Source of the DNA: Tolypothrix carrinoi HA7290-LM1
GTDB taxonomy: Bacteria > Cyanobacteriota > Cyanobacteriia > Cyanobacteriales > Nostocaceae
Length of the DNA: 64,000 nt
NCBI GenBank assembly: GCA_019358935.1
Contig: JAHHIK010000007.1
Span: 32,001 to 96,000, forward strand
Direction: 5' to 3'
Positions 2,573 to 35,802 of this stretch are shown one piece after another. Numbering within the stretch: position 1 is the stretch's first letter; every line of letters begins with the position of its first letter. Below the pieces are notes generated by a model, which worked only from the letters and a program-made list of their open reading frames with translations, was not told where the DNA came from and searched no databases. The position numbers were made by a program, and so were the translations under genes.

Positions 2573-5500
2573 CTAATCTTTCCCTCTTTTGTTAAGAAAG
2601 GCTAACCTTTCCCTCTCCGATTGAGAAAGCAATGCCCAAGCCACTTGCCTCTCCTGAAGTTCATAAAGTTCAAGAAAATCCACAACCAATTCCCACGAGT
2701 CGCACCCACATAGAATTTCAGGCATACTCAATTCAAATTCTACTATTTGTTGCGAGTCGCGGTTTAGCCGAATTTCCTCCAACTGTTCTTTATCCACAGC
2801 CGGTTCGACTTTTATAAGCTTATTAACCAAATGCGGATTTTCTAACGGGTCTAAATCCGGTACAAAAACTGTCCCCGACTGGCTGGAGATATAGTATTTC
2901 TTATATCTTTGGCTAGTTGGGGACAGTTTTGGGGGTTCAAAAAATCTCTTGTCAATCGCCTCTAACACAAAACGTGTCGTGTCGTCAAGTTGAGGTAAGG
3001 TGGTAGGGTCAAAGTGGTAGAAATACTTTCTTTCCCCCCCTCCAACACGATGGCGATCGCGCACTATGACAACACCAATTTTCGACAAAACTCGTCTTAG
3101 CAAGTAAACCGGATCGCTATCAGCATCAGCATTAATCGCCAACACAGCACGCAGTTTGTAAGAATTTTTTACACAAACCCGTTTAAAATCAACAATTAAT
3201 TCCTCATCAGCAGTCCAATGCCCAAGTTTTCTACTCAACTTATCAACCAAAGAAGGCACACCCAAATCACACAGCACGCTTGCTTGCATTGCACGGGAGC
3301 GCATATCCCAAATCTCATCACCGTAGTTAAGGGATTTTAGCCAGCGCTCAACATCAAACATTTTTTGTTTGTCCAGATTGGACATAGCCCAGCGTAATTC
3401 CAGCTGACTGATATAATCTGGGTCTTTAAAGTGTTTTTCGTATATAAAATCAGCATCAAAATCAAAACCTGGTAATCTATGTTTTAAAATTGCTTTTGTA
3501 GCTTTGTGTCTATCCTCTGGTGTTAGCATCATCGATTCCCAAAGCTTTAGAGCTTGCTGATAACTTATATCTTCCGCTTCATAGATAGATGAAGATTCCT
3601 CTTTTAGCCATTCGTCGCGAGCTTCATTAATCTTCTTAAAAGACTCGTAAACTTGCATAGGCATTTCTGAAGCGTTATGTCCTATATTCTGTAAATCTCG
3701 AATCAGCGATTCTCGCAAATTAGCACGACTGTGATTATCAAGTGCTGTATAGCTACAAACAGCTTTAAAATGTGGTGATTGCCACTTATTAGAAGTAAAA
3801 TTCATCAATTGTTCCAGATTGTCAATAATACTAGTAGCCTCGTTTTTGTCAGGTAAATAATTGCAGATTCCCAACAAATCTATAGCTTGTTGGTGGTTGT
3901 TAAAATAATTGCGAGCCACAACTTCTGGAAGCGGAGAGCGAGAAGCGTGATTATCCAAGAGAGAATAAGTTTTGCAGAAGACAATTCGCTCTACAGGCTG
4001 TCTGTACCGTGCCAACATCTGCATAATTTGACGGTGGTTTATCACCCCAAAAAATGTACCGTACACCCGCTCAAAATAAGGAAGAGTAATATCTAAGCTA
4101 CTTTCAGCAGTAGGAGATATCAATACTACTTGCGGTTTATTTTCTGCTAAATACTCGTTGGGTTTTTGCAGGAAACTGTTAACAGCATGGCTTGTCTCTG
4201 GGTCAGCTTTTGTCATGCTATCAACTCGTAAAACATCAAGATTAAAAGACTCTAAAACGCTTTGTAAACCAACTAAGTTGCGTTGTGCGTCACTGACAAT
4301 TAGCAATTTATTGCCAAGAGCAGCATCATAAACAAGTCCTTTCTCAAAGCCCCCACGAGCATTTTTCATTTCACGGACTTTACCACTTTTAAATACTTTC
4401 TTTTCGCCACCATATACGCTTACCTTCCATGCTGGAACTTGTCCTTTGTTCCAAATTCCAAATATGTTTTTCCCAGAAATTTCTTGTAAATATTTAGAAG
4501 AAATTGCAGTTAGGTCAGCGTCGAAACAGAAGATATAATCAGCTTCACGTATCAGGCGAACAAAACTTTCAATAATAATCTTGCGACGCTTGCGGCAGGT
4601 GCTTCCTGCTAGCATCTGCTGCAAGAGTTTATCGACTTCTTCGAGGATTAAGACTTTTCGGGATGATAATAAAAAGCAAGAATCAACACAAGCAGCAATC
4701 CAAGAACAAACCGAGCGCAACTTTTTATTTAAACGCTTGTCGTCAGTGGAAATATCATGGAGGTGAATGACTTTATCTTGAGATTTTTCACAAAATTGTT
4801 GTAGTAAAGAATTACGGTAAGATAATACGGTTCCTTGACTAAAATGTTCGACAATTTTGAGGGCAAGTGTAGATTTACCAGTTGCCATTCCCGATTTCAA
4901 AAGATAAACACCTTTGGCGAGATTATTGAGGTTTAAGTTAAGGAATCTCTCTGATTTTATCGAATCTGCCCACGGGGAGAAATCTTCTAAATATTGTTGC
5001 GCTGCTTGAACTCGTTCTTTATAATCACCAAAGTTAAGTTGTTTAGAGTCAAACCAATTATCCTCTGACTGGAGTCCACCATGCTCACGGGCATACGCTA
5101 GGAATTGCTGCCAACTGATATAATCAATTTCGGTAAAGAGCGGCAGTTCGTCGATATCCTGGTGCTGTTCCTTATCAATTTGTCCCCACCAACCAACACG
5201 GACGAATAACCCCAGGCTGTGGAAGAATTCGTATTGACGAATCCAGCGACGCATTACTTGGGGGTTTTTCACGTCCCCGGCATCTGGGCAGATGTTGATT
5301 GTGTGGATAATTTTGGTAGTGATTAGTTCTTGAAATTGCTCTCCAGATCCGCTAAAATTGCCACCGGCTGCCCCAACAAACAGTTTGTTAAAATGTATAG
5401 CAGCAATTAATGGTTTGGGCAATCCTTCAGCTACAAAAGCCTCCCCACCAAATTCCTCTCCTGTCCAGGAGCAATCGGAGCTAAAAATAGCAAAGCCAGG

Positions 5501-6175
5501 GATAATGGTAATGGGCAGCTCGCCATTTTGTAGATGTGAGGATTTATAGCCCTTGGGCCATCTGTACTTACCTCCATCTGGAGAGCCATCTAATCGATAC
5601 TGCCCGCCAGCAATTAATCCTTCGAGGGTGAAGGCAGGCATAAAGATTGCACTATCAGCAACCGCAAGGGAGCCACTACGCACGCCAGGATAATTCGAGG
5701 GAAACAAAGCTGGTAGTTTTTCGCGAGGACTTACGCTGAAAAATCCCGATAAATTAATTTGCTCATCACTTAAACCCCTTGCTCTAAGGGAATCTCTGTG
5801 ACGGCTGGATAAGCCGAAGTATTTGTGAAGCTGCCGAGCGTATTTATCAATTTCCTGTATGGAGAGCTTGCTCTTAGCCTCAGCTGCCTTCTCCTCTCGA
5901 CGGCGGCGCTCTTTCTCCTCACGCCACTCCGGATGCTGTGAAGAGTAATGGCTGCCATCAGAACGTTCCGCAACCAAAATTCCCCAAAATGCGCCACCGT
6001 TGACATCCTTAAGATAGCGCCAGCCCGGTATCGATTGATGGGTGTGCAGACACAGCACCATTGAAAAGTCGCTTTTTACTTGGCAATCGTGTTTTTGCCC
6101 ACTACAAGCAGGGCAAGAGAAAGTGCGACTCGTGCGGATAAAATCTTTTTTGTTGTAATTTGGTGATGCTACCAT
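2573..6175 (-). CDS. repA: Plasmid replication protein, CyRepA1-like (Zn finger + primase-like domain + helicase-like domain)
   Basis: 1200 aa; N-terminal CPAC...C; AEGLPKP and PDAGD Toprim-like motifs; Walker A SGMATGKS; ILEEVD Walker B; QMLARYR motif. Confidence 0.85.
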   Translation of the reverse strand: MVASPNYNKKDFIRTSRTFSCPACSGQKHDCQVKSDFSMVLCLHTHQSIPGWRYLKDVNGGAFWGILVAERSDGSHYSSQHPEWREEKERRRREEKAAEAKSKLSIQEIDKYARQLHKYFGLSSRHRDSLRARGLSDEQINLSGFFSVSPREKLPALFPSNYPGVRSGSLAVADSAIFMPAFTLEGLIAGGQYRLDGSPDGGKYRWPKGYKSSHLQNGELPITIIPGFAIFSSDCSWTGEEFGGEAFVAEGLPKPLIAAIHFNKLFVGAAGGNFSGSGEQFQELITTKIIHTINICPDAGDVKNPQVMRRWIRQYEFFHSLGLFVRVGWWGQIDKEQHQDIDELPLFTEIDYISWQQFLAYAREHGGLQSEDNWFDSKQLNFGDYKERVQAAQQYLEDFSPWADSIKSERFLNLNLNNLAKGVYLLKSGMATGKSTLALKIVEHFSQGTVLSYRNSLLQQFCEKSQDKVIHLHDISTDDKRLNKKLRSVCSWIAACVDSCFLLSSRKVLILEEVDKLLQQMLAGSTCRKRRKIIIESFVRLIREADYIFCFDADLTAISSKYLQEISGKNIFGIWNKGQVPAWKVSVYGGEKKVFKSGKVREMKNARGGFEKGLVYDAALGNKLLIVSDAQRNLVGLQSVLESFNLDVLRVDSMTKADPETSHAVNSFLQKPNEYLAENKPQVVLISPTAESSLDITLPYFERVYGTFFGVINHRQIMQMLARYRQPVERIVFCKTYSLLDNHASRSPLPEVVARNYFNNHQQAIDLLGICNYLPDKNEATSIIDNLEQLMNFTSNKWQSPHFKAVCSYTALDNHSRANLRESLIRDLQNIGHNASEMPMQVYESFKKINEARDEWLKEESSSIYEAEDISYQQALKLWESMMLTPEDRHKATKAILKHRLPGFDFDADFIYEKHFKDPDYISQLELRWAMSNLDKQKMFDVERWLKSLNYGDEIWDMRSRAMQASVLCDLGVPSLVDKLSRKLGHWTADEELIVDFKRVCVKNSYKLRAVLAINADADSDPVYLLRRVLSKIGVVIVRDRHRVGGGERKYFYHFDPTTLPQLDDTTRFVLEAIDKRFFEPPKLSPTSQRYKKYYISSQSGTVFVPDLDPLENPHLVNKLIKVEPAVDKEQLEEIRLNRDSQQIVEFELSMPEILCGCDSWELVVDFLELYELQERQVAWALLSQSERERLAFLNKRGKD

Positions 6176-6742: not shown

Positions 6743-7002
6743 ATCAACCTAATTTGTTGGGAGTCAGGTCGAACAACACCACACCACTTCCGAAGCAACC
6801 CAACAAAAAAGGTGTACACTAGAGTTAGAAAAAAACATAAACATAAATGATCTGGGTTGTTGGGCAATGCTTGCTTCGTTTGTGGTGACGACTGTTATTT
6901 GTTGTTACTGTCGTTGGTGTTGTCCTCCCCTTTTTTTTACAGGTACTATCTATCCATAATAGTACATAAGCAAAAAGAATTAACTATCTTCCCGCTTTAC
7001 TT

Positions 7003-7416
7003 ATGCATTTATCCTACATGAAATTGGCATACAATGATTGCTCTCCGCTTGGGCAATTCATTTTGAAGTATATGCGAGAAGAAGATTTAACTCTTAAAGA
7101 CCTCGCCGCCAAAGCGGGACTGACACGACCAGGGCTGCGGACAATGCTGGAGAAGCACGGAAGCCCTACGGAAACAAGCTTGATAAAACTAGCAGATGCG
7201 ATGAACGTATCACCTCACTTACTTTTCAAGCTTAAGCACCAAAATGAAATAGAAAATCCAATTACACCTGACGCTATTAACTTCTTTATACAAGCTGTAG
7301 AAAAACTTGTCAAAGCTATTAGAGAAGCAACAAAAGACCTTCCAGAAGAAAAGCGTCCTGATAATGACGAAATTTTATTACTCGCGGTAAAGACAGCAAG
7401 AATGATTAACTACTAA
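7003..7416 (+). CDS. XRE/Cro-C1-type HTH transcriptional regulator
   Basis: LTLKDLAAKAGLTRPGL...PTETSLIKLADAMNVS HTH pattern; divergent from rep. Confidence 0.8.
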   Translation: MHLSYMKLAYNDCSPLGQFILKYMREEDLTLKDLAAKAGLTRPGLRTMLEKHGSPTETSLIKLADAMNVSPHLLFKLKHQNEIENPITPDAINFFIQAVEKLVKAIREATKDLPEEKRPDNDEILLLAVKTARMINY

Positions 7417-15933: not shown

Positions 15934-15975
15934 GATTTCAGTCTGTGATTCTTTTAACAGTGTCTTCAATGGCAA

Positions 15976-17172: not shown

Positions 17173-17273
17173 ATTTTCATCCCAATCTTACTACGCTAAT
17201 GTGGCTGCAACCGGGCTTATAAATGTCTCTATAAGCATTAATTCTCAAAATACCACCAACTAGTCCCGTTGCC

Positions 17274-17307
17274 AGATCCCCGACAACTTTGGCGAAGTCG
17301 GGGATCT
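17274..17307. repeat. Palindromic intergenic repeat/hairpin
   Basis: AGATCCCCGAC...GTCGGGGATCT between the dioxygenase gene and devB. Confidence 0.7.
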
Positions 17308-17328
17308 AACCACTGAAGCACTAGGAGC

Positions 17329-18396: not shown

Positions 18397-18456
18397 GTAT
18401 ATATATTTCTCGTTTTTGCAACACAACCGCTAATTTTAAAAACAGTCTTTCAGAAA

Positions 18457-21400: not shown

Positions 21401-24400
21401 GATTTTGGTTTTTGGATGAAATCTGCTGGTGATAGCCGTATTAACCGATTTACATAGCGCTCCTCACCCCGTAAGGCGATTTCATCTTCCTTGTCGTCTG
21501 CCATCAACTCTGACAAAAGTGACTGAATCTCCTCTGGAGTACTGGCTCTACTCAAATCCACCCGAGTACAGCGAAGATTGGGATGTTCGTTGTTGATAAC
21601 CCGACCAAAACCCCACAAAGGAGATTGGGCAACACAGAGGGATTTCAAACCTCCTACTGTTTGGGTAGAGTTCGTCACCAAAAATAGACGCAGAGAATGC
21701 CGCCAATTGACTTTAGCCAATGCTTGAACCAAATGCAGCACGCCCAGACAGCTGTGTATCTGAGTTGATTCTAGGGTGGCTGCTGTCATTTCCTCACTTG
21801 GTGGTGTGTCTAGACTCCAGAGATAAACCACGCCGCGACAGGCTGGTTGACTGGCATTCACCGCTTCCAGGAGTTGCTGCATATCTTCTGCATGTTCCGG
21901 GCAAATTTGGAAGTTATCTGCATCAAGGCGCTTGAAGTCAATTGCAGGCTCTATCAGAATCGGGATTTCTTGGCGTTGTTTCAGTTCTTCTGCTAGCTGT
22001 TGCCCGACTCCAGAACTGTCAGCAAAAATTAACCAAGTTCCTGGATTTTCAGGCTTATGGGGAACAGCTGATGAGGGCTGAACTTCTTGCCCAAGCTTTG
22101 GGCTAGTAGCCAGAATAACGGTGTGGAGAGACTTATCTGTTTCTGGTAGTGTATCTGCAATGCTAGCAACTTCCGCAAACCCGACATCTTTTAGCAAAGA
22201 ACGCCACTGAGGCTCAGAAAGCAAAGGGTGCGATCGCCGCAGTTGGACATCAGTAAATAGCCACCAGCCGTTGAGCAATCCAAATACTAGATCCGCGAAG
22301 CGGTCAGTGGCTGTCAACTCCAGCAAAACCAGCAACCCGGAGGAAGCGAGAAGCTGTTTGACATTTTCTAGGGTCTGACGAAGGTCACGGGTCGCGTGCA
22401 GTACGTCTGATGCCAGAATCAGATCAAATGAATGCGGCTGAAATCCTTGCGCGACTATATCCGCCTCAATATCCAGAATTTGGTACTCAACAAAGGGATA
22501 ATCGCGGAACTTTTGCTCGGCAGAGACTGTAAACTGTGGTGAAATGTCAGTAAATATATATTCTGTCCGACGTGGCGTCAGCTTTGGAAGGACATAGGAT
22601 GTCAGCGAACCTGTACCTGCGCCAATTTCTAAAATCCGTACCGTTCGCTCTTTTGGTAAACCTTCCAGCGCAATAACGATCGCTTTTTCAACCAGCAGGT
22701 TATAGATCCGATAACTAGGTGAATCTTGGTACAGATGCTCAGATGTTGTCACAGAACCTTCCGGAAAAATGAGTTGCAGTGGCTCGACTTCTCCTCGCAA
22801 CACCTGACCCAACTTCTGACCGCACCGCCCTAACAACGTCAGTTCCGCTTGATAAGCGCTAAATTCCGCTAAAAGTGCTTTCCAAGTCTCAATAGGCTCC
22901 TTCATGGACGGTATGCGGCAAACTTCCCACTGGTCATCTACCCGACGCAGCACGCCTTCTTCAGCCAGGATTTCCAACAATCGACCCAAAAGTTGTCGAT
23001 GGTGAGACACTACGCCTAACTGTTCTGCAAGAGTTTCCGCGCTTATACGAGTCAGCAATTTCGGCTCCCATCCAAGTTGCTTGAAAGCTTTAAGAACGTA
23101 AGCAGCACATAAAGCATCAGTTTGTGGCTTTAACTGCTCGTAGAACTGCTTCCTTCCTAATTGCACGCTCAACCGAGTCGCTTCGGATTGGAGGTCAAAG
23201 GCGATTTGCATCGGGGAGGGCAGATAATCAGGGGTGGGGCGAACTAACTCTTGAGTGGGACGTGCCTTCATCTCCCATTGGTATTCGTAGAGGTAATCCA
23301 CTTTCTTTGAACTTTCCTGCTTGTTCTCCAAGGACTGGCAGACAAGTCCGAGAATTTCTACCAGTACGTTTCCGGCATCATCGAGCAGTTGAATATCTCC
23401 TTTGAGACGGGTGGCGGCGGTTTGCTCCATCAGGCGGGCGTAGCTCCACATTTGCAACCCTGGACGACCGTAAACTCTCACTTGTTCTATCTGTACTGGC
23501 AGGTAAGTCACTTTAACAGAGACAGTGGCGAGCGACACCTGAAAACAAGCATCAAGGATAGCCGGATGCAACTGGTATTCCCCGACTTCTGTCTGTAAAG
23601 CATTACTGATCTGAATTTGAGCCAGCGCTTCGCCTTCGCCGCTCCAAAGCTGCTCGATTCCTTGAAAACAAGGACCATATTCGAGTCCTATTTCCTGGAA
23701 TTGCCGATATAGATCTATCTTAGAAATTTCGTTGGGACAACGGCGGCGAATTTCATCCAGCACAACCTGCTTAGAGACAAAGCTATTTTGATTACGGCTC
23801 AGCTTGCCAGTTGCGTGTCGAACCCACTCCGATTGGGCACCTTTAACATTGCTGTTAATCTCGAAGAATGTTTGGCTTAGCTCTATACTTAACTGAAGTG
23901 TTGACGCACTACTTTCTGGTAAGAAGAGAGCTTTTTGAAATTCAATTTCCTCTATAATATAAGCGCCATCTTTGAAAATTTCCGATGCTGCAGCCAAAGC
24001 CATTTCCACATAAGCTGCTCCCGGATAAACCACGGCTCCTTGGACGCGATGGTCATCAAGATAACTGAGGCGATGCTTGTCAATCTCTGCATCCCAAATC
24101 GGTTGACTTGATTTCAGACGGCTTCCTAAAAGGGGGTGGACTTGTTGCCCCAACATTGAGCGCTGGGGGATTGTTCCAATCCGCACTCCCATAGATTCTT
24201 CAGACTCGTGCCAATAACGCTCTCGCTGCCAGGGATAAGAAGGCAAACGCACGAAACGCCCTTGCTGCGGATAGAGCTGATCCCAGTCAACCGGGTATCC
24301 CAAGGTGTAGAGCTTGCCAAATGACGAGAGCATCGTAGGGCGTTCCGGTTCTTTACGCCGCAGGGTTTGAAGCACTGTTCCAGATATCTCAGCTAAAGCC

Positions 24401-26943
24401 AGACACTCAGAAATTGAATTGGCGAGAACTGGATGAGCGCTTATTTCGAGGAAGGTGTTATAACGAGCTTGAATCAGGGAAGCGATCGCCGCTGCAAAAA
24501 GCACTGGCTCCCTCATGTTCAGACCCCAGTAGGTACCATCCAACTCTGAACCGTCTACCTGCTTGCTAGTAACGGTAGAGAACAGAGGAATTGTAGCCTT
24601 TTTAGGCTTGATTTTTTGCAGAGATTGTGCTAATTCTGCCTTTAATGGCTCCATGAAGGGGCTGTGATAAGGCACCTCAACTTGCAGGAACCGGCAGAAA
24701 ATTTGTTTTTGTTCTAAAGATGTGACAATTTCTGACAAGGCGGCGCTATCCCCAGCCAGGGTGACGGCACTGGGGCTGTTAACAGCTGCAATAGAAACGC
24801 AACTCTCGTATTTTAATCCTGCTAATACGCGCTGGGCTTCCTCTTGAGACAGCCCAACAGCTAGCATTTTCCCTTTGCCCGCAGCCGATGCTTGAACGCG
24901 GCTGCGGTGGAAAATGACCCGCACGGCATCTTCTAGACTCAGAACTCCGGCAACGTAGGCGGCTGCGACTTCACCGACGCTGTGACCCACGATTGCTTGG
25001 GGCGTAATGCCCCAGTCACACCACAAGGCGGCTAGAGCGATTTGCACGGCAAAGATGGAACACTGAGCGATTTGGGTAGAGTTGATGCGGCTCGTCTCTT
25101 CTGATGCTCTAAGTTCTGACAACAATGACCAATCAGCATATTGCCGCAGCAATTCGTCGCAGTGTTCGATTACCTCTCGGAATACGGGTTCGGATTCCAA
25201 CAACTGACGTCCCATTGCCCACCACTGGGGTCCCATACCAGAGAAAACGAAAGCCAGTTTGGGTTCAAAACCTGGAGCTAGGGAACCCGAAGACATAGCT
25301 GGACGGTTTTCTCCCGCTAGAAATGCTTCTAGGTTTTCTACCAGTTCTTCTTTAGTATAAGCCACCAACGCCAACCGATAGTCGTGATGACCTCGGCGAT
25401 TGCTAGCAGTGTAGCAGATGTCTGTCAATGAAACATCAGCGCCCTCTTCAAGAGCGGTTAAAAACTCATGGGTTGCTTTTGCAACAGCGATAAGTGCCTC
25501 CGGACTCTTTGCTGATAGGGGTAATAGCACTGAAAGAGAACCGCGCTCTGAATCGGCTATATTCGTTACAGCATCCGTTGCTAATCCTGATAAAAGCACA
25601 TGGGCATTCGTTCCCCCAAATCCAAAGGAATTCACGCCAGCAATGCGCGGTCCATTTTCGTTTTCCCAAGGTTCAAGGGTAGTAGGCACGCGCAACCCCA
25701 ATTCTTCAAAAGGAATTTTGGGATTCGGTGTTTGAAAATGTAGATTTGGCGGAATTTGGCAGTGCTTGAGAGCCAGCGCGACTTTGATGAGTCCAGCAAT
25801 TCCCGATGCTGTTTCCAAATGTCCAATGTTGGTTTTTACTGAACCAACTGTACAGTAGTTTCCTGGAGTCCGATTTTTACTCAGTACGTTTCCCAGAGCG
25901 ATCGCTTCTATCGGATCGCCCACGGGTGTGCCTGTGCCGTGAGCCTCAATATACTGTATTTGATGTGGCGATACCCCTGCCTGACGGCAGGCTTCCTGGA
26001 GTGCTGCTTCTTGAGACTGTCCGTTAGGAACCGTGATGCCATTGGTTTGACCGTCCTGGTTGACTGCGCTGCTAAGAATCACGGCATAAATCGGGTCTCT
26101 ATCTGCTTGCGCTTGAGATAAAGGCTTCAAAATAACAATACCGGCTCCCTCAGCGCGGACATAACCATTAGCTCGTGCATCAAAGGTAAAGCAACGCCCA
26201 TCGGGAGAGAGCATTGATGCCTGAGAAAATCCTATGGTTGCTTCTGGTCTGAGTATCGCATTCACGCCTCCTGCTATTGCCAGCACAGACTCTCCATTCC
26301 AGATACTTTGACACGCAAGATGAACTGCAACCAGCGATGAAGAGCAGGCTGTGTCAACAGTCATACTTGGTCCTTTGAGGTCAAATACGTAGGAAATGCG
26401 GTTAGCTGTGATACAGTTAACGCCGCCCAAGTTTGTATAAGCGTTAATGGAGTCGCGATCACTCCCTTGGATGTTTTGGTAATCGCTACCTGATATTCCA
26501 ACAAACACCCCTGTCTTCGAGTCAGCAAGGCGTTCTGGCATCTGCCCCCCGTCCTCCAGCGCTTCCCAGGCTACCTCCAGCATCAGTCGTTGCTGCGGGT
26601 CCATGCGAGATGCCTCTCGCGGAGAAATTCCGAAAAATTGGGCATCAAATTCGTCTATCTTATTTACAAAGCCGCCCCAGCGGGTTCGTATTTTGCCCGG
26701 TTTTGCTATATCCGGGTCGTAAAAATTATTTACGTTCCAGCGCGACTCTGGCACCTCGCTAATGGCATCCACGCCCGAAAGCAGCAGTTTCCAGAAAGCT
26801 TCTGGGCTGTTGACATTGCCTGGAAAGCGGCAGCCCATACCGATAATGGCTATGGATTCTTTTTCTCTACCACTGCCCCCACCTTCAAAGTACGTGGTTT
26901 CTTTTAAAGTTTGCTGCTTAAGATATGGCACATCCTGAGTCAT
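18457..26943 (-). CDS. Single-module type I PKS, KS-AT-DH-cMT-ER-KR-ACP-TE (2828 aa)
   Basis: KS DTACSSS/HGTGT/KTNIGH; AT GHSVGE and VPYHS; DH HRVQGAVVYP; MT ILEIGAGTG and VLHAT; ER LIHAAAGGVG; KR GGLGGFG/LDD/YVAAN; ACP GLDSL; TE GHSLG and GNHLF. Confidence 0.95.
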   Translation of the reverse strand: MTQDVPYLKQQTLKETTYFEGGGSGREKESIAIIGMGCRFPGNVNSPEAFWKLLLSGVDAISEVPESRWNVNNFYDPDIAKPGKIRTRWGGFVNKIDEFDAQFFGISPREASRMDPQQRLMLEVAWEALEDGGQMPERLADSKTGVFVGISGSDYQNIQGSDRDSINAYTNLGGVNCITANRISYVFDLKGPSMTVDTACSSSLVAVHLACQSIWNGESVLAIAGGVNAILRPEATIGFSQASMLSPDGRCFTFDARANGYVRAEGAGIVILKPLSQAQADRDPIYAVILSSAVNQDGQTNGITVPNGQSQEAALQEACRQAGVSPHQIQYIEAHGTGTPVGDPIEAIALGNVLSKNRTPGNYCTVGSVKTNIGHLETASGIAGLIKVALALKHCQIPPNLHFQTPNPKIPFEELGLRVPTTLEPWENENGPRIAGVNSFGFGGTNAHVLLSGLATDAVTNIADSERGSLSVLLPLSAKSPEALIAVAKATHEFLTALEEGADVSLTDICYTASNRRGHHDYRLALVAYTKEELVENLEAFLAGENRPAMSSGSLAPGFEPKLAFVFSGMGPQWWAMGRQLLESEPVFREVIEHCDELLRQYADWSLLSELRASEETSRINSTQIAQCSIFAVQIALAALWCDWGITPQAIVGHSVGEVAAAYVAGVLSLEDAVRVIFHRSRVQASAAGKGKMLAVGLSQEEAQRVLAGLKYESCVSIAAVNSPSAVTLAGDSAALSEIVTSLEQKQIFCRFLQVEVPYHSPFMEPLKAELAQSLQKIKPKKATIPLFSTVTSKQVDGSELDGTYWGLNMREPVLFAAAIASLIQARYNTFLEISAHPVLANSISECLALAEISGTVLQTLRRKEPERPTMLSSFGKLYTLGYPVDWDQLYPQQGRFVRLPSYPWQRERYWHESEESMGVRIGTIPQRSMLGQQVHPLLGSRLKSSQPIWDAEIDKHRLSYLDDHRVQGAVVYPGAAYVEMALAAASEIFKDGAYIIEEIEFQKALFLPESSASTLQLSIELSQTFFEINSNVKGAQSEWVRHATGKLSRNQNSFVSKQVVLDEIRRRCPNEISKIDLYRQFQEIGLEYGPCFQGIEQLWSGEGEALAQIQISNALQTEVGEYQLHPAILDACFQVSLATVSVKVTYLPVQIEQVRVYGRPGLQMWSYARLMEQTAATRLKGDIQLLDDAGNVLVEILGLVCQSLENKQESSKKVDYLYEYQWEMKARPTQELVRPTPDYLPSPMQIAFDLQSEATRLSVQLGRKQFYEQLKPQTDALCAAYVLKAFKQLGWEPKLLTRISAETLAEQLGVVSHHRQLLGRLLEILAEEGVLRRVDDQWEVCRIPSMKEPIETWKALLAEFSAYQAELTLLGRCGQKLGQVLRGEVEPLQLIFPEGSVTTSEHLYQDSPSYRIYNLLVEKAIVIALEGLPKERTVRILEIGAGTGSLTSYVLPKLTPRRTEYIFTDISPQFTVSAEQKFRDYPFVEYQILDIEADIVAQGFQPHSFDLILASDVLHATRDLRQTLENVKQLLASSGLLVLLELTATDRFADLVFGLLNGWWLFTDVQLRRSHPLLSEPQWRSLLKDVGFAEVASIADTLPETDKSLHTVILATSPKLGQEVQPSSAVPHKPENPGTWLIFADSSGVGQQLAEELKQRQEIPILIEPAIDFKRLDADNFQICPEHAEDMQQLLEAVNASQPACRGVVYLWSLDTPPSEEMTAATLESTQIHSCLGVLHLVQALAKVNWRHSLRLFLVTNSTQTVGGLKSLCVAQSPLWGFGRVINNEHPNLRCTRVDLSRASTPEEIQSLLSELMADDKEDEIALRGEERYVNRLIRLSPADFIQKPKSLVQNQEPFRLEISTPGVLDNLELRSYARQEPASGSVEIQVCATGLNFKDVAKAINLLSDASLEGTFSGRSLGIECAGIVTAIGSGVEEFKIGDEVIACAPHSFSTHTTTDARAVVHKPAHLSFEEAATIPVTFLTAYYALHYLGQICKGERVLIHAAAGGVGLAAIQIARLVGAEIFATAGSPEKREFLRSLGVQHVMDSRSLAFASQVMEITGGKGVDIVLNSLAGEAIPKTLSVLGAYGRFIEIGKRDIEQNNKLGLRPFQNNLSFFAVDLDKLLSDRPDKAGSLLGEVMQYFEAKTFHPLPHRVFPISRVISAFRYMAQAKHIGKIVVSLQEPDVTVAPSSEETVTFRPDGTYLITGGLGGFGLAVAQWLVEGGARHLVLMGRSGASSPAASEAVKILESAGARVVVAKADVSQEEQVKGVLTDIKQSMPPLRGIIHAAMVLDDAPLLDLNQERLAKAIAPKLIGAWNLHTHTLNAPLDFFVSFSSFSSIIGNAGQGNYVAANTFLDTLAHHRRAQGLPALTVNWGAIADVGYVAQNTVVGQYLEQIGMKALPSQEALQILGQLLLLEAVQTGVAPVNWQRWGEIYPAGASARFSHLVNEATVLGKADGRNSERDSLRNTVLVAKPAERQQILESHLQKQVARVLGTSPAKLDRSKPLTNLGLDSLMGVELSNRIESVLGVSVPTMKLMQGPSISQLAVELVEQLMETSLTTATTSQTQLPPSVTAVPTDWLVFPKPNPDACLRLFCFPYLGGSSSVFLPWSDDLPSDVEVCAVKLPGNKDFLGEQSFDELTSIVETLAQVVLPYLDKPFVFYGHSLGALVSFELARQLRRENGKIPAHLFIGASQAPQLPYLHPSVEQFSEFELIKGVSVNDLLQLYWEKTELVELLPQILKEVTLLTERYSYTEEEPLDCPISVFGGTQDKVITEDLLSAWREQTRSTFKLQMFSGNHLFLHSDQQLLLQAISEELTPLMSSLVK

Positions 26944-27970: not shown

Positions 27971-28600
27971 AGACTAACTATTCCCCCAGAACAGCCTCCA
28001 ATTGGGCGATCGCTTAAGAGTGAATCGGTGCAACCTGTTCTTGAATGGGCGCTAACTGTGCAGCTATCTTGACAATAACGTTATTGGCAGAGTCTGGTTC
28101 CTCTGACTCAGTTTTGACAATAACGTTATTGGCAGAGTCTGGTTTCACCGTTTCACCTTTGACCATTACGTTATTAGCTACTTTGGCATCAACGAGCGAG
28201 AAGGCGTTTTAATGTAGCTCAAGATTTGGAGTGCCTGTGCCGGCAAATTTTACTCTAACTGTTTAAGTTTCTCATCAATTCTTCGCACACTTGACGCGAG
28301 TCGGCACACCCTATCACTAGACGCATCAGTTATAGACTACAAAGCGCCTGTTCTTACCAAAGACAATTGCTCGTGACCCGACATCTTCACATACAGCTAG
28401 CAGCTTTACACTTGAGAAGAAATAATAATACTTCCTACGGAATTTTCCGCGCATTACTATCAGCAAGACGCGTGGAGTGCAAGCGATCGCTCGCAGTGCT
28501 CAAATTGGTAATAAGCGGTACTAAAGAAGCGATCGCGCTTCTTGACTCTGCGGTCAATCGTAAGAACGTCATCAAGTCTTTTTATGAGACAAACACAATT
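27971..28600 (-). pseudogene. Degraded gene divergent from parA containing ANNV repeats
   Basis: Minus frame reads DAKVANNVMVKGETVKPDSANNVIVKTESEEPDSANNVIVKIAAQLAPIQEQ, then shifts to AIAQLEAVLGE*; several stops and frameshifts; 5' boundary approximate. Confidence 0.45.
28070..28179. repeat. Three variants of the 20-bp palindrome at 45-bp period (candidate parS sites)
   Basis: TGACAATAACGTTATTGGCA at 28070 and 28115; degenerate copy at 28160. Confidence 0.8.
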
Positions 28601-28658
28601 TAACAGCACTAATTGAGTTATCTTACCTCTATATGGGGCAGAGCCAATCAACTCACTT

Positions 28659-29414
28659 ATGAGCCGAATTATTGCAATATTTAATCAAGCGGGTGGTGTC
28701 GCCAAGTCAACTCTTACCCAAAACTTGGGCTATCATTTAGCACAACTCAAGCATCGTGTCCTCCTCATCGACATGGACCCTCAAGGCTCCTTAACAATCT
28801 TTATGGGTTTGGTTCCTAGAGTTTTAAGCAAAACTGTCTATGATGCCATAGTCGAAGAACAACCCCTGTCGATTCATCAGGGAATTCACGGCATGGACTT
28901 AGCCCCCACCAACACCACCCTTAGTACAGCGGAAATGCTATTGGTCAATGCCGAACTGCGCGACTTCCGTCTCAAAGAAGCTATTGAGCCAATCCAGGAC
29001 GATTACGACTTCATCTTAATAGACTGCCCTCCCAGTCTAGGACTGCTAAGTTACATTTCTCTTGTAGCTGCTACTCATGTCCTTGTCCCCATCGAAACTC
29101 ATTTCAAAGCTTTTGAAGGAACAAACGAACTCCTGAAAACCGTCGCCAGGATTCGCACCAAAGTCAACCGTCATCTTGAGATAGCTGGGTTTGTTCCCAC
29201 CAAATACGATTCCCGTAATTCCCAGGACACTCGCACCTTGGGAGCAATTACTGAACAACTCTCTCAGATGGGAAAAGTCTTTCCCCCCATTCCTCGTTCC
29301 ACTACCTTCGTTGATGCAACAGAAGACCGAATGCCCCTAGCCGTGTATGAGCCAAAGCATCCAGCTGTTGCTGTCCTTAAACAGTTAGCTAGCAGCATGG
29401 AGTCCTTAAAATGA
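28659..29414 (+). CDS. parA: ParA/Soj-family partition ATPase
   Basis: NQAGGVAKST deviant Walker A, LIDMDPQ, FILIDCPPSLG. Confidence 0.95.
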   Translation: MSRIIAIFNQAGGVAKSTLTQNLGYHLAQLKHRVLLIDMDPQGSLTIFMGLVPRVLSKTVYDAIVEEQPLSIHQGIHGMDLAPTNTTLSTAEMLLVNAELRDFRLKEAIEPIQDDYDFILIDCPPSLGLLSYISLVAATHVLVPIETHFKAFEGTNELLKTVARIRTKVNRHLEIAGFVPTKYDSRNSQDTRTLGAITEQLSQMGKVFPPIPRSTTFVDATEDRMPLAVYEPKHPAVAVLKQLASSMESLK

Positions 29415-30757
29415 TCCGCAAACGCAACCAACCTCTCAAAAGTCAAATTGAAGTGCCTTGGGACCCCAGAAGCGATTTATCTCCCAACGCTGCCGCCGAG
29501 TCCACCCAGAACGTGCCATTAGAGCAGATACGTCTCCCCCAACAGCAACCCCGGCGTTACTTTGACCCTCAAGCTCTAAACGAGTTAATCGACTCAGTCA
29601 AACAGCATGGCATCCTGCAACCCTTATTAGTGCGCCCCATTGATGAGGGTCAATACGAATTAGTGGCAGGGGAACGACGCTACCGCGCCGCAAAAGATTG
29701 TGGACTTGAAAAAGTTCCCGTCGTTGTCCGCGAGTTGAGTAACGAAGATGCTTTCCAACTCGCACTAATAGAAAACTTGCTTCGAGAAGACCTCAACCCA
29801 GTGGAGTCAACTGAAGGCATCCTACAACTGTTGGCAGTCAGGTTAAAGCGCAATGTTGAGTCAGTTCCAACCTTACTGCATCGCCTACAACGCGAATACA
29901 AAGAAGCCGCCAAAGTTGCCAATAACGTTATTGGCAACTTTGGCGCATCGGATCTAGACACTGCCAATAACGTTATTGGCAAAAGTGAAGCGGATGATGA
30001 ACCGGAATCTGCCAATAACGTTATTGGCAAAACTTCAGTATCGGATCAAGACACTGCCAATAACGTTATTGGCAAAACTTCAGTATCGGATCAAGACACT
30101 GCCAATAACGTTATTGGCAAAAGTGAAGCGGAGGAATCAGGCGCTGCCAATAACGTTACTGTCAAAAATGAATCTGATGAGGGGGAATCTGCCAATAATG
30201 TTATTGGCAAAAGTGAAGCAGATCCAGACGCTGCCAATAACGTTATTGTCAAAAATTCAGCATCGGCTCAAGACTCTGCCAATAACGTTATTGGCAAAAC
30301 TGAGTCGGATGGTTCATCACCATCCCCCAACCCGAATTTAAGTGCCAATCCAGACCTGAAGATTATTGAAGAAGTATTTATCGGCTTGGGGACAATGACC
30401 TGGGAGTCCTTTGTCAATAATCGTCTGCCCCTACTAAACCTCCCAGAAGACATCCTCAATGTGCTGCGCTCTGGACAAATTGCCTACACCAAAGCCAAAG
30501 TTATTGCCCAAATCAAAGAGGACTCAACACGGCAAACCGTTTTAGAAAAAGCCGTTGCCAATAGCTGGTCACTATCACAAATTAAAGAACACATCCAAAC
30601 CCTATCACCCACTACGCCACCACCAACGCCTCTCAAGTCTCGTCTGGATGCCACAATCCGTCAGGTGAAGAAAGCCCGGATTTGGGATGACCCCAACAAG
30701 CAAACTCGTCTATCAACACTTCTAGCAGAACTGGAAACCCTCCTGGCTGAGGATTAA
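29411..30757 (+). CDS. parB: ParB/Spo0J-family partition protein with internal ~15-aa repeats
   Basis: QPRRYFD, GILQPLLVR, LVAGERRYRAA, ENLLREDL; overlaps the parA stop (ATGA); nine ANNVIG-type repeats. Confidence 0.95.
   Translation: MIRKRNQPLKSQIEVPWDPRSDLSPNAAAESTQNVPLEQIRLPQQQPRRYFDPQALNELIDSVKQHGILQPLLVRPIDEGQYELVAGERRYRAAKDCGLEKVPVVVRELSNEDAFQLALIENLLREDLNPVESTEGILQLLAVRLKRNVESVPTLLHRLQREYKEAAKVANNVIGNFGASDLDTANNVIGKSEADDEPESANNVIGKTSVSDQDTANNVIGKTSVSDQDTANNVIGKSEAEESGAANNVTVKNESDEGESANNVIGKSEADPDAANNVIVKNSASAQDSANNVIGKTESDGSSPSPNPNLSANPDLKIIEEVFIGLGTMTWESFVNNRLPLLNLPEDILNVLRSGQIAYTKAKVIAQIKEDSTRQTVLEKAVANSWSLSQIKEHIQTLSPTTPPPTPLKSRLDATIRQVKKARIWDDPNKQTRLSTLLAELETLLAED
29908..30296. 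repeat. Array of nine 20-bp palindromes inside parB (candidate parS array)
   Basis: TGCCAATAACGTTATTGGCA at 29917, 29962, 30010, 30055, 30100 and 30277 (perfect); 30145, 30190 and 30232 have 1-2 mismatches. Confidence 0.9.
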
Positions 30758-31007: not shown

Positions 31008-33902
31008 ATGCTAGATAAGCATAAGATTGATCAGCTACTGAACGCCTGGTTGGATTTCTTTTATCTGGAAAACCTTTCCCATGCTGAAGTTGATGCTGCC
31101 GACGATGATAACCAAATCTTGGACAAAGGCATCTCCCTGGTCGGCGACAATCTGCTTATAGAAGAATCTTTATTTAAACAACTCAAGCAACAATTCCTCG
31201 CGCTCAAGAAGAAAGGTAAAAATAATGACTTTCAAATGGCTGTAGCTTTGCCTCAAATTTGGCGGGCAATTGAAGGCAGTCGCCGATTTTATCCCCTGTT
31301 TAAGATTGATATTTCCAGCATCTTTCAAGGCAACTACCGCGCTAAAGGTTGGGATTTGAATTCTTTTGAGTTCCAACCCGTTCCCCCAAACTTGATGGAA
31401 TTGTATCAGCTTGACGAAGAAGAAATCGAAGCCTTAGTCATAAAAGAAGGTCTCAAGGTCTTCTTAGAAACCACCTTTAAGCAATCTTTCACCAGCCTGC
31501 AAGACTTTCTTGACCTTGTTGACTTGCCAGTCAAACCTTACACAACCAAACGCGCTCCCTATCTGCTGCACTTTGACTTCGTTGCTTACAATTACAATCT
31601 CAAAAAAGACTTACAGAAAATATTAGAGCAGCCGCAGTGGGAGTGGGCAGAACCAGGTCATCCCGCTTATGAGTATCTGTTTGGGCAACCCCAACCACCA
31701 CACCATGAAGTGCTGTTTCTGGGTGCTTTTCCGACTCATCCCCCCACGGACTCTCAAGCAGTGGCTCTCAAACACACCCAAGAGAACCCCATCACTGCCG
31801 TTATTGGTCCTCCAGGAAATGGCAAGACTACCTTGCTGTTGCACAAACTAGCCCAGCAAGTGGTCAAACGGGCTGTGCAGTTGGCGCAAACGGGACAAGA
31901 TGAAAGTAATTTGACCCTAGTTACCAGTACGAACAACCGGGCTGTCTCCAATGTTGAGCAACGATTAGCTCAAGACTTCCCAACCAACCGATTTTATTTA
32001 TCAGGAGGCTCTAAAGAGTTAATCACAAAACTTGTTATACCCAAACTGCAAGCCGCCATTGATTGGTTACAAAACGAGACTTTTAACGAAACCGAATGGC
32101 AGGGAGTGTCTCAAAAACTGTTAGCAGGAGTCAACCAACTGCATTCTCAACTAGAGCTTGACCAAAGACAACTTCAACAACGGGCAGAGGATGAACAACT
32201 GCTTCGAGAGCTTGTTGGGGATATTCAAGCAAAGTCTCTTGAGATAGAAACGCCCCAGATAGAGCAGCAACTTCAAGAGCAGATACCATATCCTGAACCC
32301 GACTACTCCCAATTCCCCCTAGAAGCCTACCAGATAATCAAGCCGCATTTGGACAATGCCAAGCGATCGCTCCCGCGTGTAGACCACTCCCAATTTAATG
32401 GTAAAGCTGGTAACTGGTTGGTTCGAGTCCGATATTGGCTCACGAAACTTTGGCAAAAGCTGACCAGAACCACTGAGCGACACATTCTACGAAAGTTGCA
32501 CAAACAGATTTCAGCTCCGGTTCTGGCTACCCTAGCAACACCCTTTCCCTTTCAAATTCCTCTCACCAGGGAGTCTCTGTCTGCTGCTTGCTCCTCTGTC
32601 GCGTCGCAGCTAGAAGCAGCACACCAGTGGCACACCAAATTTCAGAAATTGGCTGACACTCAAACCCATTTAGACTCGCTCCAACGCCGTCAAGATGACC
32701 TTGTTGCTCAGAAACAACAAGTTGAAAAACGGTTGGCTGGCTATCCCACTCAAGATTTTTACACTCGCTTCTACACCGAACAGCACCCGCTCGCTGTGCA
32801 ATTATTTGAGTGGTCTTGGCAGTATCTGCAACTCCAAGCACTACGACGCAAGCATGAAGTTATTGCCTCCTTAAAGACTTACATTAGTGTTTTGAGTGGC
32901 GAATGGGAGGCTTTTCGCTCCTTTGGGCGTGACTGGCGAAATATTTACTCTGACCTCAGCTTGCTGTTTCCAGTTATCACTTCAACCCTGCACTCTGTCC
33001 GTAATCTACTGCCCTATCCTGACAGTGGCTGTATTGACCAGTTGATTGTCGATGAAGCCGGGATGATTCCCGTCCATCAGCTATTTCCTGCCCTCGTCCG
33101 CTGCAAAAAGGCTCTTGTGGTGGGCGACCCCTTGCAGTTGGAGCCAGTCATTAGCTTTAGCAAACAAACTCTAGAACAATATTGCACGCAGGCTTTTTTC
33201 AAACGGGGACTGAGTGAGTCAGACTATGACCGTTACAGTCCGACAGCTTGCGACACAGCAACCGCGTATCACCGAGCAGCAGGAGCTAGTGGTCAATCGG
33301 GAGACTTGGGCAAGGGAATTATTCTTAAAGAACACCACCGCTGTGTTCCACCCATTATTACTTTTTCAGATCGCCTCTGTAACTATGGCTTAATCATCAA
33401 AACCCCAGCCAAAGCTTCTGCACTTGGTTCCAACCTAATTGCTTACCACGTCGAGGGAAAGTACGAATCCCACACAAACCCTGAAGAAACGAGAGCCGTC
33501 GAAGCGATTATTGAGGAGCTGCTTAAGTATGGTTACTGCATTGACAAGCCAGACAATGAAAAAACAATTGGGGTAATTTCGCCTTATCGTCGTCAAGCCA
33601 ACGCCCTTGGGTCTCGTTTATGCTCACGCTGGGAAGATTTTAGCAATAACAGTATTGGGACAATTCACACCTTTCAAGGGGGCGAGAAATCGGTGATTCT
33701 CCTATCTACTCGCCAGTGCCGTAAAGAAGATTCGCTGTGGTTTATTAATCGCCGTCCCAATTTACTGAATGTCGCAGTAAGTCGTGCCAAAGAATTATTC
33801 ATTTTGGTGGGGAATTTAGAGCATCTGGAGCAAGGAGGTGGCTACACCAAGATGTTAGTGGAACATATTCGGCAGCACGGAGAGATTCGGTTGTTACCGT
33901 GA
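31008..33902 (+). CDS. Superfamily 1 (Upf1/DNA2-like) helicase/ATPase
   Basis: GPPGNGKT, STNNRAV, LIVDEAG, VGDPLQLEP, EHHRC, GVISPYRRQ, GTIHTFQGGE, LLNVAVSRAK. Confidence 0.9.
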   Translation: MLDKHKIDQLLNAWLDFFYLENLSHAEVDAADDDNQILDKGISLVGDNLLIEESLFKQLKQQFLALKKKGKNNDFQMAVALPQIWRAIEGSRRFYPLFKIDISSIFQGNYRAKGWDLNSFEFQPVPPNLMELYQLDEEEIEALVIKEGLKVFLETTFKQSFTSLQDFLDLVDLPVKPYTTKRAPYLLHFDFVAYNYNLKKDLQKILEQPQWEWAEPGHPAYEYLFGQPQPPHHEVLFLGAFPTHPPTDSQAVALKHTQENPITAVIGPPGNGKTTLLLHKLAQQVVKRAVQLAQTGQDESNLTLVTSTNNRAVSNVEQRLAQDFPTNRFYLSGGSKELITKLVIPKLQAAIDWLQNETFNETEWQGVSQKLLAGVNQLHSQLELDQRQLQQRAEDEQLLRELVGDIQAKSLEIETPQIEQQLQEQIPYPEPDYSQFPLEAYQIIKPHLDNAKRSLPRVDHSQFNGKAGNWLVRVRYWLTKLWQKLTRTTERHILRKLHKQISAPVLATLATPFPFQIPLTRESLSAACSSVASQLEAAHQWHTKFQKLADTQTHLDSLQRRQDDLVAQKQQVEKRLAGYPTQDFYTRFYTEQHPLAVQLFEWSWQYLQLQALRRKHEVIASLKTYISVLSGEWEAFRSFGRDWRNIYSDLSLLFPVITSTLHSVRNLLPYPDSGCIDQLIVDEAGMIPVHQLFPALVRCKKALVVGDPLQLEPVISFSKQTLEQYCTQAFFKRGLSESDYDRYSPTACDTATAYHRAAGASGQSGDLGKGIILKEHHRCVPPIITFSDRLCNYGLIIKTPAKASALGSNLIAYHVEGKYESHTNPEETRAVEAIIEELLKYGYCIDKPDNEKTIGVISPYRRQANALGSRLCSRWEDFSNNSIGTIHTFQGGEKSVILLSTRQCRKEDSLWFINRRPNLLNVAVSRAKELFILVGNLEHLEQGGGYTKMLVEHIRQHGEIRLLP

Positions 33903-34062
33903 GCGCACTCCGGTTCTGGGAACGTGTGCAGTTAAACAAAGGCTTATCCAAGAAGCGATTAAAATATAATAAATATACTTACTATGGAATTTGTAAAATC
34001 ATTCAGCTTTTACACTCCTCCAAAGCACAATTAAACAGGAGAGATTGACAGAGGACAAGCCG

Positions 34063-35802
34063 ATGGCTTACGCAATCTTCCGCATTGAAAAACAAAAAAC
34101 TTGGGGACAAATTGCTGGCAGTGCTGGTCACGCCCAGCGTACCAGAGAAACACCTAATGCTGACCCCAATCAAGAAAATATCTGGCTGATTGGCAATTCT
34201 ACACAGGATTTAGTACAGGTTGTGCGCGATCGCATTGGCGAGCAAACGATTCGTAAAAATGCAGTGCTTTGTGTAGATATGTTACTGGCTGCCTCTCCAG
34301 AATATTTTCGTCACGACAGTATAGCGGAAGCAGGGGTGTATGAGGATGACAGACTAGAAGCTTGGGTGAAGCTGAACGAGCAGTGGTTGAGTGAGCGATT
34401 TGGCGATCGCATTGTGTCAGCTGTCCTGCACCGAGATGAAGCCACTCCCCATATTCAGGCTCACTTGGTTCCCATTGATGAAAAAGGCAAACTCAACTGT
34501 AATGGCATCTTTGGCTCTCCTAAAATTTTGAGGAAATGGCAAGATGACTATGCCTCGGCCATGCAACCACTTGGTTTAGAACGGGGGATAAGAGGTAGTA
34601 AGGCTACGCATATTGACATCCAGCAATATTACAGCAACATCAACGCTGACCATACGTTGGACATGGACGTGCTGCTCGACAAAGCCAGAGATAGGGATAG
34701 AGCCGAACGTCAGCGTAGGGAGATGGAAGCTACTGCTAAGGCAGCACAAGCGTCAGCTGACCGATTGAGGGAACAAAACCAGCGGTTGCAATTACAAATT
34801 CGCAAGCTCAAGAAGCAACTGGCACAACAATCAGAACAGCTGCAAGACATTCCTCTAGAAGATGTGGCTTATGAACTTGGGTTGTCAGGCGATAATGATT
34901 CGGAGAATCGGTGGGTTGGTGCGGGTATTGCACTGGAAATAAACGGAGCTAAGTTCTCCGACTCTGGGACACAAACCGATGGTGAGGGTGCGATAGAACT
35001 GGTGCAGCACGTTATGGACTATGACTACCCCTCAAGTGTTGCTTGGTTAGCTGATAGATTTGGGGAGACAAAAGCGATCGCTGCCACCACAGCTAAGTCC
35101 CAACGACAAGCAGAGGATATTATTGCTACCAAAAGAGTTCCACAGTTTGAACCACCAGCACCGGATGAAGATAAGTGGTTGGGGGTGAGGCGCTACCTGG
35201 TCGAGACGAAGGGATTAAGAGAAGACTTAGTGGACAAGACGCACTCTGTAGGGCGCATCTATGCTGATGCCCAAGGAAATGCTGTATTCTTGCAACAAGC
35301 TATGGACTACTCTGATGGACAACTTAGGCGGGATCGGGTTACGGGAGCCAGTATGAAGGGAAGTGGCTTTAATGGGTTAGCACTCGGTTCAAGTCGAGAA
35401 TCAGGCTGGTTCGGGGTGGGGCTAGGTCAGGGAGACGTGCAAAGAATTGCCCTAGTAGAGTCTCCTATTGAGGTTTTGTCAATAGCTTCGTTGTACCCCA
35501 ATCCCAAAGTCCCCACTCTCTACTTAGCAACAAATGGAACTGATGCCCTGCCAATGGAGCTAATGCGCTCCTTGATGTCGCGTGGCGGTGAAATTTTTGT
35601 GGCTTATAGTGCTAGTGAGTCGGGGGAAAAGCTGGCTCAACAAGTGATGGAGCAACTGCCAGAAGCAACCAGAGTTAAACCCCAACTGGGTGAAACTTGG
35701 AATGAACAGCTACGAATTAGTCAACAGCAAGTTCGAGAGCAGTCCAATAGACAAACGCAACATAAACAGAAATCTATTGATGGTGGGGGAATGGAGCTTT
35801 AA
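34063..35802 (+). CDS. mobV: MobV (Mob/Pre) relaxase fused to DUF3991/Toprim-like C-terminal domains
   Basis: MAYAIFRIEK, HAQRTRETPNADP, IRKNAVL, ASPEYF, LHRDEATPHIQAH, GLERG; C-terminal LVESPIEVLS Toprim-like motif. Confidence 0.9.
   Translation: MAYAIFRIEKQKTWGQIAGSAGHAQRTRETPNADPNQENIWLIGNSTQDLVQVVRDRIGEQTIRKNAVLCVDMLLAASPEYFRHDSIAEAGVYEDDRLEAWVKLNEQWLSERFGDRIVSAVLHRDEATPHIQAHLVPIDEKGKLNCNGIFGSPKILRKWQDDYASAMQPLGLERGIRGSKATHIDIQQYYSNINADHTLDMDVLLDKARDRDRAERQRREMEATAKAAQASADRLREQNQRLQLQIRKLKKQLAQQSEQLQDIPLEDVAYELGLSGDNDSENRWVGAGIALEINGAKFSDSGTQTDGEGAIELVQHVMDYDYPSSVAWLADRFGETKAIAATTAKSQRQAEDIIATKRVPQFEPPAPDEDKWLGVRRYLVETKGLREDLVDKTHSVGRIYADAQGNAVFLQQAMDYSDGQLRRDRVTGASMKGSGFNGLALGSSRESGWFGVGLGQGDVQRIALVESPIEVLSIASLYPNPKVPTLYLATNGTDALPMELMRSLMSRGGEIFVAYSASESGEKLAQQVMEQLPEATRVKPQLGETWNEQLRISQQQVREQSNRQTQHKQKSIDGGGMEL

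Follow-up and report, generated by a model that had tools for sequence, protein, structure and literature searches.

A palindrome array inside the parB gene of a probable cyanobacterial plasmid as a candidate parS centromere

ParB proteins with a CTP-binding motif load at their specific site, and the ParB-CTP clamp is moved by ParA. In Bacillus subtilis a parS lies inside spo0J, and in the F plasmid sopC is non-coding and placed downstream of sopB. The closest described case is that of the Thermus thermophilus HB27 megaplasmid pTT27, for which the available excerpts of two papers report parSm inside parBm and foci formed by ParBm from its own gene in E. coli (PMC4409726, PMC10085754), as well as binding of ParBm to a 14-bp palindrome in parBm by EMSA (excerpts of PMC4409726); parSm is described in these excerpts as one site, with no array and no family-wide rule. 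As far as the excerpts of PMC7205306 go, some ten units that contain a palindrome recur in F-plasmid sopC with a period of roughly 43-45 bp, and a single sopC site is reported to trigger spreading. For the chromosomal ParB and Noc proteins, the available parts of PMC7383237 give a T at -4 for both consensus parS and NBS, place N178 of Caulobacter ParB among the conserved residues contacting parS, and describe a conserved Asn with specificity switched at R173, T179, A184 and G201. Deinococcus radiodurans has direct-repeat arrays (cisII/cisMP) upstream of parAB that go with ParB2/ParB3 (PMC7671480, available excerpts). A search of the literature, mostly of non-subscription journals and with "pars" as a noisy term, returned no cyanobacterial parS sites, residue-base rule or coding arrays. 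ParABS and the location of a parS inside parB (at another gene position in the Thermus megaplasmid) are already known, and the locus presented here is not a new kind of system.

We analysed a stretch of 64,000 nucleotides from Tolypothrix carrinoi HA7290-LM1 (the window, positions 32001-96000 of contig C7), in which a parB gene carries an array of palindromes. Its relevant features are listed below in window coordinates.

2573..6175, minus strand: CyRepA1-like replication protein, 23-31% identical to plasmid proteins, several of them annotated CyRepA1
28068..28187, minus strand: non-coding trio of palindrome copies (28070, 28115 and a degenerate one at 28160) in an inverted homolog of the parB array
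28659..29414, plus strand: parA, a Walker-A ATPase of 251 aa that has no N-terminal extension; the gene overlaps the start of parB
29411..30757, plus strand: parB, 448 aa, with ParB_N CTPase (aa 32-123), two helices, palindrome-coded acidic insert, HTH_ParB (aa 333-398) and C-terminal helices
29908..29945, no strand: first copy, extended to a perfect palindrome of 38 bp and located 52 codons past the ENLxRED motif
29917..30296, no strand: nine palindromes of 20 bp arrayed in frame, each with its centre between an Asn and a Val codon (AAC/GTT), a likely parS array
30398..30427, plus strand: predicted recognition helix of ParB (T330-L339)
30419-30421, plus strand: codon of N337, the helix position whose residue varies with base ±4 of the palindrome among family members
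34045..35802, plus strand: Mob_Pre relaxase, plasmid context
36128-36147 and 36183-36202, no strand: perfect non-coding pair of palindromes between the mob and SNF2 genes

The 118-kb contig that holds the window carries the CyRepA1-like protein and the Mob relaxase and is therefore very likely a plasmid. Elsewhere on it (contig positions) we found another ParA at 6581-7372 that has no ParB, another Mob-like frame at 28216-29646, and a frame of 1169 aa at 107167-110676 that we take to resemble a second replication protein; the first 127 bases of the contig are repeated at position 42772. The contig could be a cointegrate, or two plasmids joined together. Within the window (18457-26943 and 14755-18426, both minus strand) there is also a 2828-aa single-module polyketide synthase (KS-AT-DH-MT-ER-KR-ACP-TE), accompanied by a TauD-like dioxygenase and an HlyD/FtsX exporter. 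parB is followed by an AAA_11/AAA_12 superfamily-1 helicase gene (31008-33902, plus strand), and an AAA-domain gene of similar size occupies the same place, or one near it, on several complete plasmids (L379, L380, L384, L385).

The ParA of the window matches the AAA_31 domain (profile search, E 5e-49) from residue 3 onwards, and the family median is ~255 aa if the last Met ahead of Walker A is taken as the start; parA stands directly upstream of parB in 69 of the 89 family loci having enough flank. ParB shows an N domain (PF02195, E 2e-33) with an intact GxxRxxA CTP motif in the form GERRYRA, the commonest among family ParBs, and an HTH domain (PF17762, E 8e-11) with helices 314-326 and 331-343 modelled at high pLDDT. 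Its fold matches are ParB, Spo0J and Noc, which confirms the family and offers no residue-level contact map, and the sequence alignment of its HTH with those of Spo0J and Noc is weak (E 0.01-0.05). The closest relatives come from Tolypothrix, Scytonema and other cyanobacteria. With an adjoining Walker-A ParA, a ParB_N domain bearing GxxRxxA, an HTH and a palindrome of ~16 bp specific to the par locus, the system works like ParABS by sequence-level criteria, CTP loading, spreading and segregation being candidate activities. An initial reading of the sequence alone (the sequence-only reading) had compared it to the classical type Ia system of F, a placement contradicted by a ParA that is small and has no N-terminal extension.

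The array itself withstood recounting: nine copies start at 29917, 29962, 30010, 30055, 30100, 30145, 30190, 30232 and 30277, with spacings of 45, 48, 45, 45, 45, 45, 42 and 45 bp, all in one frame, and the first copy does extend to a perfect 38-bp palindrome. The copies are less uniform than had been claimed, as six of the nine are perfect and those at 30145 (two mismatches), 30190 and 30232 (one each) are not, and seven read ANNVIG while the other two read ANNVTV and ANNVIV. The whole window holds 13 matches to the palindrome against a shuffle mean of 0.01. Units 3 and 4 (30010-30099) are identical 45-mers, and in run X1, possibly the source reads, a 123-nt contig spans one unit-3/4 copy and then the flank of unit 5, at a depth of 695 against 519-661 beside it. 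Taken together, these suggest that eight copies rather than nine are possible; since assembled contigs drop variants, the run gives only a hint. A shorter array variant lies on one contig of run X2. In RNA-labelled runs, searched as assembled contigs, at most 8% of the words were present.

The stretch of protein encoded by the array is acidic, as proposed (24 D/E against 9 K/R within 148 aa), but it does not fall cleanly between the CTPase and DNA-binding parts: it follows the ENLxRED motif and two helices and directly precedes the HTH. In the AlphaFold model residues 183-300 lie mostly at pLDDT <50, the first palindrome copy is found at the end of helix 149-175, and beyond the insert the HTH is modelled confidently. 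This first copy sits where single-copy relatives carry their only one, i.e., 49-52 codons after ENLxRED.

The sequence-only reading had also listed five copies outside parB. Two of them (36128 and 36183) are perfect and two (28070 and 28115) have one mismatch, while the one at 28160 carries five and accordingly gave no match in a window scan at up to four mismatches. The 36128/36183 pair is present too in L002, L003 and L004. The upstream trio belongs to a 120-bp inverted homolog that is 76-82% identical to the array, spacers included. We considered a small gene in this trio and rejected it, as the minus-strand frame has no Met start and the inverted homolog is frameshifted in the relatives L001 and L004. 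The simplest reading suggests that a segment of the coding array was copied to this place and retained as DNA sites, the direction of copying being our inference, and the position of this inverted piece 0.5 kb upstream of parA suggests that a coding array can seed non-coding sites.

Across the genome (7.96 Mb, 184 contigs) the palindrome occurs at 15 sites with ≤2 mismatches, 13 of them at the par locus, which, together with a search of 301 genomes, rules out a repeat scattered genome-wide. The remaining two (C79:39662 and C102:1007) fall within two homologs of a small, unrelated gene that follows an integrase-like frame, each with a perfect 18-bp palindrome core that again reads ANNVIG; chance is an unlikely source for these matches, and another element may possibly be using the plasmid ParB. 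Viral contigs had no match to the palindrome 18-mer. Such copies next to an integrase-like frame, and the inverted duplication upstream of parA, are what one would expect if the palindrome were the site of some other protein (a recombinase or host factor) or a cruciform-forming recombination hotspot. Against such an origin, the arms occur in dozens of sequences that follow the helix of their own ParB (see below), and the four family ParBs of the window genome each have a different palindrome, and we consider it very unlikely.

To place the locus in its family, we collected ParB genes by searching genomes, metagenomes and viral sequences; 306 of them span the N domain and the HTH. Family membership was set at ≥190 bits to a ten-sequence profile (156 of the 306, or 155 after one with a short linker was dropped), and 104 representatives are family genes below 80% core identity; most metagenome and viral ParB matches fell outside the family and served as controls, and 40 further parB loci stand outside the family, locus, covariation and tree counts. 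An in-frame palindrome with ≥8 of 10 arm pairs is present in 96 of the 104 representatives (10/10 in 70), with its centre between two codons, nearly always AAC/GTT (Asn-Val), and typically at the same distance from ENLxRED as given above. The alignment of cyanobacterial ParB genes that had been proposed as a check thus yields a palindrome at the same position throughout most of the family. For comparison, the first 1,200 nt of the 150 ParB-like genes with lower scores were searched for their best palindrome, which reached 10/10 in one gene and 9/10 in 16. In an earlier subset of 55 genes (one of 56 was left out, its centre being off frame) synonymous resampling gave an expectation of 5.6 of 10 arm pairs, while 49 of the 55 reached ≥9, and these genes contain 37 different palindrome 16-mers. 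A strong in-gene site is absent from eight of the 104 representatives, six of which had no substitute palindrome in the DNA examined. Family members with an in-gene palindrome were also found on contigs of 3.8-7.1 Mb (L068, L078, L098, L099), and by this sequence evidence the site appears on chromosomes too, whether native or in integrated elements.

Changes in one arm are compensated in the other: on the 96-row tree the half-site changes no fewer than 55 times, arm positions 3-9 are Watson-Crick complementary in 88-96 of the 96 with at most two G-T pairs, and the two central positions are paired in 94 and 92 of the 96. The paired centre and the few G-T pairs speak for a site in double-stranded DNA rather than an RNA hairpin. 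The array mRNA does fold strongly (z -13.4), and a hairpin or terminator was examined on these grounds and rejected, as G-U covariation is absent from the family and the centre is paired. A terminator scan gave 5 hits against 4.0 ± 2.1 in shuffles, one of them at the first copy, and a promoter scan 6 against 6.5 ± 2.4; at these counts neither scan is informative.

The palindromes are also tied to their own par loci. With parB masked, a locus's own palindrome recurs in the flanks of 18 of the 96 loci (≤1 mismatch in 16; 27 matches in 1.49 Mb), and foreign palindromes turned up in flanks in 1 of 4,362 locus-query tests. The exact 16-mer of the window occurs in 8 of 301 genomes of the order; in the seven other genomes it has 12 sites, 10 inside parB matches, one ~185 bp upstream of such a match and one unassigned. 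Of eight complete cyanobacterial plasmids, seven have the in-gene site and one has a broken site. On four of those seven there is no second copy (≤1 mismatch), so that the in-gene site is the sole candidate centromere for many plasmids, as judged from their sequences. The broken site is in L385 (NC_014503.1), where the palindrome is reduced to about a half-site, parA and parB frames are intact and no palindrome copy was found elsewhere on the complete plasmid. Genome G059 has four contigs (L051, L052, L053, L063) with ParBs sharing one two-copy palindrome, for which partition incompatibility would be expected; this argues against a strict specificity of one site per replicon.

The outside copies bear on another explanation, namely that ParB binds these sites as an operator or transcription roadblock limiting its own expression and that the centromere is some other sequence. 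In 7 of the 18 loci with outside copies, one such copy precedes the estimated start of parA by 42-196 bp, and autoregulation is common in plasmid par operons, according to the available parts of PMC7022226. However, four of the seven complete plasmids carry no copy that could be placed there, the upstream copies of the window are 542-587 bp from parA, and the CTP-binding motif characteristic of ParBs that load at a specific site is kept. We therefore regard a purely regulatory role as unlikely, and operator and centromere roles can coexist.

Covariation also links the palindrome to its ParB. Base -4 of the palindrome and position 8 of the recognition helix (N337 in the window) share 1.13 bits of corrected mutual information, with the next column at 0.26 among the 262 columns outside the insert. 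Asn is paired with T in 59 of 60 cases, His always with C (9 of 9), and Ser/Thr/Ala/Lys with A in 25 of 27; the exceptions are three copies, Asn with C once and Ser with G twice. On a tree built without insert and helix (a quick and weakly supported tree, with 22 of 93 branches starred), base -4 changes 20 times against 33 expected if shuffled, and 18 of these 20 changes coincide with helix position 8, compared with ≤12 for the 52 other columns that change 15-30 times. Independent pairs on starred branches agree for Asn-T (6/6; mean 5.8) and for Ser/Thr/Ala/Lys-A (6/6), p 0.03 each, and His-C has three, too few for significance. Two weaker pairings, helix 7 Arg with G at -5 and helix 6 Arg with G at -7, fall short of significance on the tree (p 0.125 and 0.25), and the Deinococcus loci are mixed for the former.

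The rule extends to sites outside the coding loop. Two loci lacking a strong in-gene site have non-coding upstream palindromes that obey it (L119, Asn-T; L113, His-C), and in Deinococcus, where loop-less ParBs carry the Asn, candidate palindromes near parAB have T at -4 in 11 of 13 loci, these being sites chosen by inspection and covering the Asn state only; near parAB in the other two we found no such palindrome. All seven Thermales genes carry the site within the gene, and they fit as well (four Asn-T, three His-C). Helix position 8 aligns, with the weak E-values noted above, with the Asn of Spo0J and Noc. Since site and helix are in one gene, and given the strong mRNA fold, one may ask whether an xNVx peptide contacting the HTH helix, or selection for an mRNA hairpin, produced the rule. 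The residues after NV are grouped by first base (Ile/Met/Thr versus Leu/Phe/Ser) and not by chemistry, so a peptide-helix contact does not explain it; moreover it holds at non-coding sites, G-U pairs are not enriched, and the would-be loop positions are complementary. An origin at the protein or RNA level is hardly credible on this evidence.

We next turn to the repetition itself. That it is the essential feature finds no support in the 146 palindrome-bearing family genes, of which 129 hold a single copy and the other 17 between 2 and 10. The multi-copy genes use at least five different palindromes and imply at least four changes on the tree; a further three-copy form is on a complete plasmid, and relatives with 78-85% identity have 8-10 copies with shuffled spacers. 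The array is, judging by these sequences, a lineage-specific amplification of the single family site. The core of the sequence-only reading, namely that the palindrome is a DNA site of its own ParB and is selected as DNA, is strongly supported by the comparative tests, although three of the nine window copies are degenerate. In 59 copies from nine loci the Asn codons are AAT in 59/59 and then AAC in 55/59, Val is GTT in 55/55 and Ile ATT in 56/56, and spacer third positions are mostly 36-80% conserved; because the 59 copies share ancestry, this fixity overstates their independence. The extra copies may still be neutral by-products of slippage or recombination in a tolerant loop, with the site being parS all the same. 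The single copy of most genes, numbers that differ among close relatives (8, 9, 10) and in an independent run, the degenerate copies and identical units, and expansion in several lineages with different palindromes all suit this, whereas the fixed palindrome codons beside diverging spacers speak against it, even if shared descent or gene conversion may explain part of that pattern. We regard neutrality of the extra copies as a serious possibility, somewhat short of even odds.

How, then, does the locus compare with the systems described above? Like sopC, it has tandem units of ~43 bp; the non-coding downstream array and the N-terminal DNA-binding extension of ParA that mark F-type systems are absent. 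Its units are coding, variable in length (42-48 bp) and separated by divergent spacers. Homology to sopC is not supported, given that a single site is commonest in the family and the array is lineage-specific, and the likeness is convergent. Chromosomal ParB-parS and Noc-NBS share with it the fold, a 16-bp palindrome with an AC/GT-type centre, T at -4 and the aligned Asn, and compared with consensus parS (excerpts of PMC7383237) the arms of the window palindrome differ. The window family departs from ParB/Noc in that the Asn position varies with base ±4, and that a family-specific insert of ~30 aa carries the site.

Thermus ParBm belongs to the same family, scoring 269 bits against its profile and aligning in two segments at 45% and 37% identity; the pre-HTH insert is present, and the ENL-to-helix distance is 70 aa, as in single-copy cyanobacterial members. 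Its gene contains two palindromes, the published parSm and one at the family position (L358:8414 and 8598; L374). The published 14-mer lies 111 codons after ENLxRED in frame 1, whereas the family site is at +50 in frame 0; the 14-mer is found in HB27 and HB8 only, among 20 Deinococcota parB genes examined, and does not fit the His-C rule, which the family-position palindrome (9/10) obeys. HB8 has a second exact copy of the latter outside the gene. As the published 14-mer is elsewhere in the gene, its EMSA neither confirms the family-position site nor fits the rule, and the ParBm foci in E. coli would fit either Thermus site. The Deinococcus ParB2/ParB3 proteins are related and have a similar helix, but no coded loop. 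Deinococcus secondary-replicon parAB loci (L359, L362-L368, L370-L372) have non-coding palindromes of several types, several of them repeated; we regard them as candidates for parS that differ from the direct repeats already published.

Based on the position of the palindromes, their DNA symmetry, their locus specificity and the residue-base covariation, we propose, with a probability of roughly 80%, that the nine in-frame palindromes are the parS centromere of the ParB they help encode. In this scheme a ParB dimer from the same gene would bind the palindrome through its HTH, load as a CTP clamp and spread over its own operon, and ParA would drive segregation. The single site would have been duplicated in this lineage in units of 14-16 codons, the loop ahead of the HTH accepting insertions and the in-frame units keeping the protein open, so that duplication was likely tolerated; as the copies are still kept as palindromes, they are probably extra loading sites, and one copy appears sufficient in most relatives. 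With site and reader in one gene, both would change and move as a unit. Whether a broader generalization holds we consider evenly balanced: a self-encoding centromere in cyanobacterial and Thermus plasmids, with parS in a dedicated parB loop near the helix that reads it, site and reader switching together by a simple residue-base code across dozens of natural pairs, in-frame growth to 8-10 units that shed non-coding parS, and the family-position palindrome as the main Thermus site.

If true, a centromere could be named for many cyanobacterial plasmids, a plasmid of the model strain Nostoc PCC 7120 among them, whether polyploid cyanobacteria partition their plasmids actively would become directly testable, and the sites would help toward stable, compatible vectors; the published Thermus parSm assignment could also be put to a concrete test. 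The family would then offer at least 37 ParB/parS pairs found in nature. Their candidate code consists of a single residue, whose position is conserved in the ParB and Noc systems that have been solved, and the pairs would be useful for work on protein-DNA specificity and as orthogonal locus labels. In the array, one sequence would be under DNA-level and protein-level constraint at once, such that centromere size and protein length change together.
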